Below, in pieces: positions 7,139-10,817 of a stretch of 10,817 bases of DNA. The notes beneath the pieces were generated by a model. That model did not search any database and was not told the origin of the DNA. It saw nothing but the letters and a program-made list of their open reading frames with translations. Origin of the DNA: Candidatus Nanoarchaeia archaeon (lineage in GTDB: Archaea > Nanobdellota > Nanobdellia > SCGC-AAA011-G17 > VGLX01); contig JAWABC010000009.1 in NCBI GenBank assembly GCA_038884815.1, positions 8,925-19,741 on the forward strand, read 5' to 3'. Every line of letters starts with the position of its first letter. The first letter of the stretch is position 1. The position numbers were made by a program, and so were the translations under genes.

Positions 7139-7223
7139 CTAACTCAAAATCCCCCCTTTTTCTTACTTCTAATATGAACCATATTTCATTTATTAAATGT
7201 TTGTTTTACTTATTTAATAGTAA
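7139..7223 (-). promoter_or_regulatory. 85-bp spacer between the pilin block and the machinery block, with A/T-rich TATA-like boxes and a purine-rich RBS-like G6 run
   Basis: The minus strand reads tagTTACTATTAAATAAGtaaaacaaacaTTTAATAAatgaaatatggttcatattagaagtaagaaaaaGGGGGGATtttgagttagATG. TTTAATAA lies at 7190-7197 and the G-run at 7151-7156, 12 nt from ATG 7138. This is the only sizeable non-coding gap inside the locus. Confidence 0.35.
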
Positions 7224-8069
7224 CTATGCAATCCTCGCTGTGCTAAACTTAGTAAGATTAGATTCAGGAAAAGTTATGTTGTAAAGGTTTTGAGGGTAAG
7301 TGACTATGATCCTTTCATCTTGAGGAATGTTCATTGTTATGTTGGTAGAGAAAATAACATCATGGTTATCTTTGGTTGATAAGTTCATCATAGCAGGATT
7401 ATTTATGTCTATGTCAATCCTCCAAGTTGAAGGGTAAGACAAAAGAACGTAAGCACTGCTGTAAGCTGCAGGGTTAACGTTCACAGTAGAAGACAAAGAG
7501 CCTGAGGAATGCTCCACTTTTATTGTGAAAGGCATTGAACCGGAAGAAACGTAGTTCCAGGTTATCGTAGCGCTCTGAGCAGTAGAAGTTATTGTAATCA
7601 CATAACTCTTAACATCGTCAACGCTTTGCGGACTTACCATTATCTCCTCATCGCCAAAAGCGTCATGGGTATAAACAATACCTTTAGGCTCGACGTTCAG
7701 AGTCAACTTATTTTTAACGCTGCTGTAAACAGAGCTGTCAAAAACAACTTTGGGAGAAACGTTATAGTTATCCTCTACATAGGACTTGAACTGATCCATA
7801 ACGTTACCGAAATTGCTGCTTCTGGGAAGGGTTTCTGTGAAAACAACAGACTCATTATAAACGTCAACAGCAAGGCCTGACCTGTAATCAAAAATCCTTC
7901 TCAAACCCATACCTATTGAAGAGTCAAGCTCGTAAAGCCTGTCAAAAAGAGCAAGCTCACCAAAGCGATCGTTCAAAGACTTCGTGTTGTGAAACATCAA
8001 AATACCCAAAGAAAAAACAACGCTGGCTAGGAAAAACATACCAAGAGTAATCATAACACCTTTTTTCAT
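7224..8069 (-). CDS. Pilin-like or pilus-associated secreted protein with a class III-type signal (MKKG|VMITLGMFFLASVVFSLGILMF) and a ~250-aa Ser/Thr/Asn-rich beta-rich ectodomain
   Basis: ATG 8069 forms an ATGA overlap with the upstream TGA (8066-8069). The track's start at 8084 is a TTG five codons further upstream. A [KR]G pair precedes a 22-residue hydrophobic helix. Several N-x-S/T sequons are present (NES, NVS, NLS, NIT x2, NLT). I recognised no known domain. Confidence 0.75.
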   Translation of the reverse strand: MKKGVMITLGMFFLASVVFSLGILMFHNTKSLNDRFGELALFDRLYELDSSIGMGLRRIFDYRSGLAVDVYNESVVFTETLPRSSNFGNVMDQFKSYVEDNYNVSPKVVFDSSVYSSVKNKLTLNVEPKGIVYTHDAFGDEEIMVSPQSVDDVKSYVITITSTAQSATITWNYVSSGSMPFTIKVEHSSGSLSSTVNVNPAAYSSAYVLLSYPSTWRIDIDINNPAMMNLSTKDNHDVIFSTNITMNIPQDERIIVTYPQNLYNITFPESNLTKFSTARIA

Positions 8070-8521
8070 CTCAACCACATCCAATAATGTGCAGTAGCGA
8101 AATACTCAACTGTTGCCTCACCAGATGTCTCATTAGGAATCACAAAGTTACGACTGCCACCAACAATAAGCTGCTCGCCAGGAGGCTCTGTAGTGCTCTC
8201 CACAGTAAGTATGCCAGGAAGGAATGTCCCATTAATCTGAACCCTCATATGATAAGTAGCAGGCAAAAGAGTTTTTACTTGTGCAGAAACATCACTCTGA
8301 TTCAAACCAACCAAATCACCTTCATGATCCATAACAGCCAACAAGTCATAACCAGTACGGGTCATCTGCAGCTTAGACAAAGGCTCATCATTAGCACGGC
8401 CAACGTAAAAAGAAGCAACAACCAAGAAAATGAAGACTACAAAAACTGCAACGGCAGCATCCAAAGATAGGATGAAGCCCTTACTTCCAAACCGTGAACT
8501 CGAACAAAGCCCTCTGCCCAT
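8066..8521 (-). CDS. Pilin-like protein with a class III-type signal (MGRGLCSSSRFGSKG|FILSLDAAVAVFVVFIFLVVASF)
   Basis: ATG 8521 is the only canonical start in this frame before the hydrophobic helix. It overlaps the upstream gene by 41 nt. A KG pair precedes a ~23-aa hydrophobic helix, and the ~110-aa ectodomain carries the sequons NQS, NGT and NET. Confidence 0.75.
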   Translation of the reverse strand: MGRGLCSSSRFGSKGFILSLDAAVAVFVVFIFLVVASFYVGRANDEPLSKLQMTRTGYDLLAVMDHEGDLVGLNQSDVSAQVKTLLPATYHMRVQINGTFLPGILTVESTTEPPGEQLIVGGSRNFVIPNETSGEATVEYFATAHYWMWLR

Positions 8522-8963
8522 TGAAAATCACATACCTGTAAAGGTTAACCCTCTTCGTATCTTGAGATGTGTAGTTAAGACCCAACTCTTTTAATGTCAC
8601 ACCGCCAAAAGTCTTAACCTTCAAAGAATAATCATAAGGATGGATGTCAAACAAATCTTTTGTTGTTTCATAACTTAAATTAGCCATGGCATCTATCTTC
8701 TCAGCAGACAAAACCCTGTCATCAGAAGCCAAGCCAAGAACGGTAACGTTTTGAGGACTAACTTCCCACCTTGAAGGAACGCCAGGAGTCTTAACCAGCA
8801 TATCTGTAATGTGAAAAGCATGAAGCTGCATCTCCTCGTCTTCCAAGTCATCAGCCAACCTCGAGTTGTAAACGTTCCAAACAACGAGAAGTATGACAGT
8901 TAGAAGTATGAAAACAAGGAATGATATTATCAGGTCAACGCTTTCTATTTGCCCTTTAGACGT
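8481..8963 (-). CDS. Pilin-like protein whose class III-type signal (..TSKG|QIESVDLIISFLVFILLTVILLVVW) lies upstream of the first canonical start codon. The true start is unresolved.
   Basis: The track ORF 8481..8858 begins at a TTG. The same frame stays open upstream as far as a TGA at 8970-8972. That upstream stretch encodes CTTSKGQIESVDLIISFLVFILLTVILLVVWNVYNSR, a KGQ motif plus a hydrophobic helix like those of the neighbouring genes. It contains no in-frame ATG, GTG or TTG. The left (stop) coordinate is firm and the right coordinate is a guess (the ACG codon at 8961-8963). Confidence 0.6.
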   Translation of the reverse strand, partial: TSKGQIESVDLIISFLVFILLTVILLVVWNVYNSRLADDLEDEEMQLHAFHITDMLVKTPGVPSRWEVSPQNVTVLGLASDDRVLSAEKIDAMANLSYETTKDLFDIHPYDYSLKVKTFGGVTLKELGLNYTSQDTKRVNLYRYVIFNGQRALFEFTVWK

Positions 8964-9348
8964 TGTACATCACCACCGTGCCGTTTATGTTTTCAGCAAT
9001 GACATAACCTTCGTAAAGGTCAAAGGAAGAATTGCCATCAGGAGAACCTACCATGGTGTGGGAAAACTTGCAAATGTAACCCTCACCAGCAGTTTCAACA
9101 ACACCAGAAGAGCCATCTACATTAACATTCTTTGTAAGCTTAAAAGTTATGTTCGTTTTAGGGCCGCTAACATACAAACCAGTAATCATGTTGGAGACCT
9201 TCATGCACTCAGACTTCTCAGTAACAAAGTCCTCAATCTGGAACAAATCACTCCTCCTATCAAAAGTCAGAAACACAAGTATGAGAAACATGAAAGTCAT
9301 TAAAGCGATTGCAACCAAGATTTCAAAACTACCTTGCGCCCTTTTCAT
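8956..9348 (-). CDS. Type IV pilin-like protein with a class III signal peptide (MKRA|QGSFEILVAIALMTFMFLILVFLTF)
   Basis: ATG 9348 directly abuts the upstream TAA (TAAATG). Residues Q-G-S-F-E fit the archaeal Class_IIIsignal QxSxE motif, with R and A at positions -2 and -1. The protein is 130 aa, which is pilin-sized, and carries the sequons NIT, NSS and NGT. Confidence 0.85.
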   Translation of the reverse strand: MKRAQGSFEILVAIALMTFMFLILVFLTFDRRSDLFQIEDFVTEKSECMKVSNMITGLYVSGPKTNITFKLTKNVNVDGSSGVVETAGEGYICKFSHTMVGSPDGNSSFDLYEGYVIAENINGTVVMYNV

Positions 9349-10599: not shown

Positions 10600-10742
10600 T
10601 TTTTCAAAATATAGGTATAAAAACACATTTTTTATTACTTCTTATTCATTATAGAGTGGTATAATAAGGTTTATATACGGGATAATCATTAAATTATCCT
10701 AACTTAGAGATACTAAAAATTAAAAAAAAGGAGGCGAATAAA
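10600..10742. promoter_or_regulatory. Divergent intergenic control region containing a TATA box TTTATATA (10670-10677, near-palindromic), further A/T boxes near 10616-10640, and AGGAGG (10729-10734) serving the plus-strand pilin gene
   Basis: The plus strand reads ggTTTATATAcgg ... aaaaAGGAGGcgaataaaGTG. The Shine-Dalgarno lies 8 nt from GTG 10743. The TATA box lies about 70 nt upstream of that start, which implies a leader of roughly 40 nt. The minus strand reads gtgTTTTTATAcctatattttgaaaaaATG with no Shine-Dalgarno, suggesting a leaderless or very short-leader mRNA. Confidence 0.45.
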
Positions 10743-10817
10743 GTGAAAAGAGGACAAGCAGCCATGGAGTTTTTGATGACTTATGGTTGGGCTATTCTAG
10801 TAGTTTTAGTTGCAATC
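10743..10817 (+). CDS. Type IV pilin-like protein, 5' fragment only (25 codons), with a class III signal peptide V(M)KRG|QAAMEFLMTYGWAILVVLVAI. It is a candidate major pilin.
   Basis: The GTG start has a perfect AGGAGG 8 nt upstream. A KRGQ cleavage-type motif is followed by E at +5 and a hydrophobic helix. The ORF runs off the right edge, so it is absent from the ORF track. Confidence 0.8.
   Translation, partial: MKRGQAAMEFLMTYGWAILVVLVAI

Follow-up and report, generated by a model that had tools for sequence, protein, structure and literature searches.

How is a conserved pilin-like gene translated when its reading frame holds no canonical start codon ahead of the signal peptide? The question is raised by the third of five pilin-like genes in a 10,817-nucleotide (nt) stretch of a Candidatus Nanoarchaeia archaeon genome (assembly GCA_038884815.1, contig JAWABC010000009.1, positions 8,925 to 19,741), referred to here as the window. 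The gene lies on the minus strand, and its coordinates are given in the direction of reading. The frame of open reading frame (ORF) 8481..8858 is open upstream to an in-frame TGA at 8972-8970. After this TGA, the strand reads TGT ACA ACG TCT AAA GGG CAA ATA GAA AGC GTT GAC CTG; this part of the frame translates as CTTSKGQIESVDLIISFLVFILLTVILLVVWNVYNSR, and from TTG 8858 onward the remaining 125 residues follow. No in-frame ATG, GTG or TTG occurs between the TGA and TTG 8858-8856, and the TAA stop of the upstream (second) pilin-like gene (8958-8956) falls inside the stretch, within the TCT-AAA codons. An earlier note, made from the letters alone, had described this open frame, the missing start, the embedded TAA and the near-cognate codons ACG 8963-8961, ATA 8948-8946 and CTG 8933-8931, and reading the sequence again confirmed each of them. 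One position required correction: the out-of-frame ATG, placed by the note at 8967-8969, lies at 8970-8968. This ATG encodes the upstream gene's Met (...VVMYNV*; the upstream frame at the junction is GGC ACG GTG GTG ATG TAC AAC GTC TAA), sits inside the ribosome-binding site described below, is one base out of frame with the third gene, and overlaps the TGA as TGATG. Reading the TGA itself as a sense codon offers no way out, as a TAA at 8987-8985 closes the frame with no start codon in between.

We propose that the third pilin gene initiates at the near-cognate ACG at 8963-8961 and encodes a minor pilin whose translation is probably coupled to that of the upstream gene, a reading to which we give a probability of roughly 70%. 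Among the in-frame codons from the TGA to the lysine (TGT, ACA, ACG and TCT), ACG alone is a single-base neighbour of ATG. The proposed coding sequence, 8963-8481, comprises 160 codons plus TAA and is colinear with orthologues of 155-170 residues.

Comparison with these orthologues places a start codon at this position. In a search of 240 genomes of the same order, orthologues aligned from residue 4 to the end were found in 90 genomes besides the window's own, and a 1.84-billion-protein library held 1087 relatives at E below 0.001, nearly all of them 155-170 residues long and starting at the signal peptide. The N-terminal open frames were read in 86 of the 90; almost all have an ATG a few codons before a [KR]-[GA]-Q motif, a few have TTG or GTG, and some have a slightly longer leader. 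The motif, with its predicted cleavage before the Q, is kept in about 85 orthologues, with the Q and the D at +6 over 90% conserved. In the closest orthologues, which begin M-x-K-[GA]-Q, the start codon precedes the Q by four codons. The window has ACG 8963-8961 at this place, which is the ATG/TTG position of the orthologues and matches the ATG of L097, L002, L034 and others. A truncated relative, P0151, is cut by a contig end and hence provides no further case.

The closest ATG orthologue, P0005 (56% identical), is encoded on L097 (GCA_053533135.1) within the same five-gene order. The L097 junction, TTTGGTGATAAGAAATGCGTAAGGGTCAAGTTGAATCAGTGGAC, is colinear with that of the window, GGTGGTGATGTACAACGTCTAAAGGGCAAATAGAAAGCGTTGAC: both run from GGTGAT through five bases, ATG or ACG, two bases and the upstream TAA into K-G-Q-[VI]-E-S-V-D. 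Base by base, L097 has GGTGAT-AAGAA-ATGCGTAAGGGTCAA and the window GGTGAT-GTACA-ACGTCTAAAGGGCAA, with no insertion or deletion. The start and stop overlap by 8 nt, as ACGTCTAA in the window and as ATGCGTAA in L002, L034 and L097. At the start codon itself, window and L097 are separated by a T-to-C transition at 8962 that leaves an Asn of the overlapping upstream gene unchanged (AAT to AAC, a synonymous change). The alignment of orthologous loci for which the earlier note had called thus finds an in-frame ATG at the ACG position, and it does so without a one-nucleotide difference in length.

The ACG is also preceded by a well-placed Shine-Dalgarno (SD) site. The 3′ end of the 16S rRNA, GGATCACCTCC, was found on contig C12, and 8 of the 9 bases of GGTGGTGAT (8977-8969) agree with its complement, GGAGGTGAT. 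If spacing is measured from the base that aligns with the final G of the GGAGG core (G 8973) up to where the start codon begins, the ACG has a spacer of 9 nt; SD-led starts in this genome range from 6 to 10 nt with a mode of 7, and most of its genes have no SD. In L097, the ATG is preceded by an identical GGTGAT at an identical spacing of 9 nt. Judged from these alignments, the ACG occupies the place of the ancestral ATG, and both the SD site and its spacing are ancestral.

Two further sequences preserve the junction. L031 (GCA_038884535.1, JAWABS010000007.1) differs from the window by 5 mismatches in 4658 nt (99.9% identity), whereas L030 (metagenome contig FWPV01033295.1) shares 84.5% identity over 5.3 kb and therefore comes from a different species. 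Both read GGTGGTGATGTACAACGTCTAAAGG at the junction, matching the window at every base including the ACG, and the site is free of homopolymers. The arrangement has been kept between the window and L030 across about 0.8 synonymous substitutions per site. We compared the two over the extension, defined as the 32 codons 8954-8859 that do not overlap the upstream gene. Its 14 substitutions comprise 13 synonymous changes and one Ile to Val, giving a ratio of non-synonymous to synonymous rates (dN/dS) of 0.014, against 0.049 for the rest of the third gene and 0.07-0.16 for neighbouring genes; the other two frames of the extension contain stops and give dN/dS above 3. In GQIESVD, the seven codons upstream of the CTG, there are 4 synonymous and 0 non-synonymous changes. 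As 12 of the 63 possible single-base changes in these codons are synonymous, simple arithmetic puts the chance of such a pattern at about 1 in 800.

Because the ACG is common to both lineages, the substitutions in the extension postdate the loss of the canonical start, and the pattern of selection in GQIESVD and the rest of the extension means that translation must begin at or upstream of G 8954. On this comparative evidence, selection acts on translated codons at least as far upstream as G 8954. The earlier note had considered the extension very unlikely to be a chance product, a view borne out by the orthologues in 90 genomes, the 1087 library relatives and the strong purifying selection. 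Spanning the junction is a 47-nt run (8999-8953) identical in L030, the third-longest such run in the 5.3 kb, that takes in the SD, the ACG and the overlap together with the upstream gene's final 14 codons. Other long identical runs lie in intergenic regions or at another gene junction or overlap. The run fits a constrained initiation region, with a short recombination tract as the alternative.

In the mechanism we propose, initiator Met-tRNA would pair with the ACG through a mismatch at the middle base. The small subunit would be held in place by the 8/9 SD duplex 9 nt upstream, or ribosomes that have terminated at the TAA 5 nt downstream would be used, or both; translation of the upstream gene would probably deliver ribosomes to the ACG by termination-reinitiation, a plausible route that the earlier note had raised for the overlapping TAA. 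The product would begin M-S-K-G/QIESVDL... (the slash marks the predicted cut), with the four-residue leader, encoded by the (M/T)-S-K-G codons at 8963-8952, removed by prepilin peptidase between G (8954-8952) and Q (8951-8949). The mature protein would be the same as from an ATG, and just its amount would be lowered, to a small fraction of the ATG output. Since the leader is cleaved off, the start codon would be free to drift with the mature protein unchanged. Measurements of all 64 codons as starts show that in Escherichia coli ACG initiates with Met at about 0.1-1% of AUG (bioRxiv 10.1101/063800), and in Haloferax volcanii about 30% of the alternative initiation sites mapped with harringtonine are near-cognate (PMC7261190).

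Weak codons also stand at the start position of this gene in other lineages. In three other species of the same genus, the third pilin gene is 27-31% identical, occupies the same place in the operon, and has ATA or ATC at the start position (G002, L023 1495.., minus strand; G001, L027 1471..; G003, L025 1477..). G002 reads CAGGGGGTGTGCTAA followed by ATA TCA ACC AAT AAG AAA GCA CAA, with the ATA directly after a TAA stop, GGGGGTG 8 nt upstream, and the next canonical codon only inside the helix. G001 reads CAG GAG GAG TCA TCT ATC TCA CCC ACT AAA AAA GCA CAA, with GGAGG 8 nt before the ATC and no canonical codon before the helix. G003 has ATA at the equivalent place, and a TTG two codons upstream of it is too close to the SD. 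In all three, an SD (GGGGGTG or GGAGG) precedes the ATA or ATC by 8 nt, the stop of the upstream gene follows within a few bases, and the AUH codon has been retained across a synonymous divergence (dS) of 0.8-1.1 with dN/dS of about 0.2. A fourth homologue, from another family of the order (G228, L090 373.., minus strand), reads GGTGGTG-TGTTAA followed by ATA AAA AAT ... AAA AAA AGT CAG, with its GGTGGTG again 8 nt upstream. The window's out-of-frame ATG has no counterpart in L097, L023 or L027.

Altogether, the canonical start has been lost in 4-5 of about 87 third-pilin orthologues, in three lineages. As a control, neighbouring ORFs with class III (prepilin-type) signals at the same loci lacked a canonical start in 2 of 166 cases; the first of these is a doubtful antisense ORF, and the second is the third pilin gene of G001, which the filter had overlooked. 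The concentration of start loss in the third pilin gene is suggestive, coming as it does from related lineages and small numbers. With ATA or ATC at the start of this gene in three congeneric species and a distant genus, a weak start seems to be tolerated in this low-copy (minor) pilin, and may even be favoured. A stronger claim, tentative and on balance doubtful, is that the weak start was selected: in small-genome archaea, AUG would have given way to ACG, AUA or AUC on at least three independent occasions, with an SD 8-9 nt before each codon and the stop of the preceding gene shortly after it, so as to hold output at a small fixed fraction of the upstream pilin through termination-reinitiation.

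Gene callers would also truncate the third pilin genes of G001, G002, G003 and G228. A different arrangement is seen in L016 (G060, 1458.., minus strand), where the sole in-frame canonical codon before the leader is a GTG inside the SD, GGGAGGTGG, and TTC stands at the normal spacing.

Several points weigh against ACG as a start. To our knowledge, ACG is accepted as a start codon in neither archaea nor bacteria, it is missing from the start list of table 11, and we know of no natural ACG start established in either domain. In the literature library searched, likewise, no paper described a natural ACG start in archaea or bacteria. The ACG occurs in two diverged lineages only, a distribution that fits tolerance as well as selection for ACG itself. 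The genome encodes aIF1 (SUI1), which rejects near-cognate codons, and its presence rules out aIF1 loss as an explanation. In the 5′ extensions of long open frames, SD-plus-ACG was not enriched (3/232 against a background of 1.7%) in a genome-wide test that is blind to leaderless ACG starts, and the third pilin gene is the sole credible SD-plus-ACG case in the genome. As for the decoding machinery, the tRNA-Thr(CGU) is a normal elongator, and no unusual initiator tRNA was seen in an incomplete genome where the initiator tRNA itself was not found. Downstream frames that stay open through long intergenic gaps showed no excess genome-wide, in a cruder test biased by construction; the gene caller mis-called this locus.

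Of the alternatives to ACG initiation, a programmed +1 frameshift survives best, and we consider it improbable. Ribosomes translating the upstream gene would shift within ATG TAC AAC GTC TAA into KGQIESVDL..., yielding a fusion of two pilins. The geometry has some appeal, since the third gene lies in the +1 frame of its upstream neighbour and the sole shift window, 8969-8956, ends at a stop, a known type of +1 site; the 47-nt conserved run could carry a frameshift signal. However, the junction differs from +1 sites of the prfB or antizyme type in elements that would promote shifting. In GTC TAA A, a P-site GTC cannot re-pair in the +1 frame (TCT), leaving no slippery codon; the SD-like site is 11 nt from the GTC, as opposed to about 3 nt in prfB; and the RNA fold of 9010-8920 is no better than that of shuffled sequence (z −0.36), leaving no stimulating structure. 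Nor do the start-less relatives G001, G002 and G228 have a slippery motif in common, and every orthologue stands alone as a gene whose own start occupies this position. A fusion would also be expected to place the second helix in the wrong membrane orientation. The programmed shift that the earlier note had listed among its options finds no support here.

Still less probable is C-to-U editing of ACG to AUG in the mRNA, in the style of plant organelles, which would restore canonical initiation at the RNA level and would account for the persistence of the ACG. Start-codon editing of this kind is well known in chloroplasts and plant mitochondria (PMC9845219, PMC12548569). C-to-U editing is not known from archaeal mRNA, and ACG-to-AUG editing is known only from plant organelles; the 90%-complete genome gave no match to the DYW-type deaminase (PF14432), a search in which control genomes likewise gave none; and editing would leave the ATA and ATC starts of the homologues unexplained.

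Initiation further downstream, with no KGQ leader made, is the choice of the public annotations. The NCBI record for the window's gene, P0003, begins at TTG 8858-8856 and has 125 residues. In L030, the CTG at 8933-8931 (Leu of VDL) is replaced by TTG, where the annotated 150-residue product begins (P0004, L030 2085-2537). Both versions lack the signal peptide, and CTG does appear in the start list of table 11. Against these starts stand the purely synonymous changes upstream of the CTG, the dN/dS of the extension, and the presence of the leader and cleavage motif throughout the family, and we regard them as very unlikely. The last option of the earlier note, a protein that really starts at TTG 8858, falls with them. 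So does part of its near-cognate option: ACG 8963-8961 stands, while ATA 8946-8948 and CTG 8931-8933 lie downstream of selected codons.

An assembly error or a recently inactivated pseudogene, the first option of the earlier note in the form of a single-base indel, would be conceivable in a fragmented metagenome-assembled genome of 116 contigs in which another gene, on contig C50, also has its ATG out of frame across a G6 run and thus indicates that errors or real frameshifts occur, but is highly improbable here, as three assemblies from two species agree at every junction base, the site has no homopolymer, L097 is colinear with a T-to-C substitution in place of any indel, and the open frame has been under strong purifying selection since the split of two ACG-bearing lineages, where a dead gene would differ.

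The C50 gene (C50:242-1981, minus strand) is an observation in its own right. It encodes a 579-residue protein with a thioredoxin-like part (WGDGCPHC) and a CcdA/DsbD-like membrane part, and its signal peptide and first CxxC lie upstream of any canonical start. Its ATG is one base off across the six-G run (ATGAAAGGGGGGACTG), and one G fewer would give MKGGLNIRFYILVAF.... An assembly error in the homopolymer, a true frameshift or slippage could each account for this displacement.

What protein would initiation at the ACG produce? Its architecture, (M)SKG/QIESVDLIISFLVFILLTVILLVVW, consists of a short positively charged leader ending in [KR]-[GA] and a hydrophobic helix of about 20 residues; the mature N-terminus and helix are encoded at 8951-8877. 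An AlphaFold2 model built from 80 sequences (predicted local distance difference test score, pLDDT, 96.8) shows one unbroken helix from residue 2 to 58, to which two short helices and a four-stranded sheet are added. As modelled, this is the general type IV pilin architecture, a long N-terminal helix with a beta-sheet head. G61 and W66 are invariant in the family, and Q5, D10, P63 and R143 nearly so. No Pfam or NCBIfam model matches the third-gene protein, and Foldseek returned no significant match in the PDB for the head domain (best E 0.028, template modelling (TM) score below 0.3). Since neither a curated model nor a PDB fold matches significantly, we classify the protein as pilin-like, with a class III signal, and as belonging to an undescribed family of about 1100 members outside the named pilin families.

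The surrounding genes match this assignment. The minus strand of the window carries a block of five genes with class III signal peptides, followed by genes for a 373-residue membrane protein, a T2SSE ATPase, two T2SSF platform proteins and a KaiC-like ATPase. In a Pfam search, the T2SSE match (E 7e-35) and the two T2SSF matches fell in a co-directional string with the pilin block. A Peptidase_A24 prepilin peptidase is encoded outside the window (contig C30:3980-4315; PF01478, 48.7 bits, above the cut-off). Together, the five class III signal genes, the ATPase, the platform genes and the A24 peptidase identify the locus as an archaeal type IV pilus operon, in which the gene studied is the third pilin-like gene of five. 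The pilin-type signal peptide recognised in the earlier note is upheld, with leader and helix shared by all orthologues and both the A24 peptidase and the pilus machinery present. The source assembly measures 0.93 Mb in 116 contigs at 90% completeness, and its relatives have genomes of 0.5-1.8 Mb; the size suggests a DPANN-type archaeon.

Overlaps chain through the pilin block. The upstream (second) gene, 9348-8956, encodes 130 residues beginning MKRAQG/SFE... and shows dN/dS of 0.156 against L030. On the plus strand, an antisense ORF at window positions 8893-9303 (136 residues) outsizes this real gene, which it overlaps; it is a trap for gene calling by longest ORF and misled the simple gene caller used here. 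ATG 8521 is the start of the fourth pilin gene, whose leader is unusually long at 15 residues (MGRGLCSSSRFGSKG/FILSLD) and is encoded wholly within the final 41 nt of the third gene in a different frame. A 41-nt run covering this leader region, 8525-8485, is unchanged in L030, and the third gene's TAA falls inside the fourth gene's x-K-G codons (AGT AAG GGC), just as TAA 8958-8956 does in the third gene. The two longest runs identical to L030 are 88 nt upstream of the first pilin gene (10714-10801) and 66 nt in the spacer between the pilin block and the gene for the 373-residue protein (7185-7250). Both are likely promoter, terminator or leader elements.

Bacterial genes with weak starts, such as infC and pcnB with AUU, offer one comparison, and in E. 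coli ACG belongs with AUU, AUC, AUA and CUG to the class IIA codons. As in those genes, an SD-led gene here would retain a non-canonical start that lowers or regulates output, and the ATA and ATC starts in the same genus fall into the same codon class; an autoregulatory logic of the infC type is not evident. Termination-reinitiation was reportedly shown for gene pairs of Haloferax volcanii and E. coli by Huber et al. in 2019. The junction resembles such pairs in its 8-nt overlap, in the SD inside the upstream gene and in the chain of overlaps through the pilin block, and differs in its ACG, the restart codons of the studied pairs being canonical.

A further comparison is with ACG starts in eukaryotes and their viruses, of which Sendai virus C′ and mammalian cases are among the examples cited within PMC9845219. 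Common to these and to the start proposed here would be an ACG read by the initiator tRNA, a yield below that of AUG, and conservation as a natural start. Unlike them, the ACG of this locus lies in an archaeal polycistronic mRNA with an SD and an overlapping upstream stop, and involves neither scanning nor a Kozak context. Among archaeal type IV pilins and other class III signal proteins (PF04021; substrates of PibD, FlaK or EppA), the likeness extends to the short basic K-G leader, the Q, the hydrophobic helix of about 20 residues, the neighbouring genes for a PilB/FlaI-type ATPase and two PilC/TadC-type platform proteins, and the A24 peptidase in the genome; the third-gene protein departs from them in having no Pfam or NCBIfam match and a head with no significant PDB fold match.

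If the ACG is read as a start, the accepted archaeal set (ATG, GTG and TTG, with the rare ATH codons and the CTG of table 11) is incomplete. Genes of this kind are systematically truncated by gene callers, as in the public records of 125 and 150 residues, which hide the pilin identity of their products. The locus itself is a clean natural test, with one T/C difference at the start separating it from an otherwise colinear ATG orthologue. Should the weak start prove to be selected, ACG would be a genuine archaeal start codon and the junction a device for setting stoichiometry. The repeated weakening of the start in other lineages points to possible control of subunit ratio, and the strength of the start codon, together with the overlap of start and stop, may set the proportion of minor to major subunits in the pilus.

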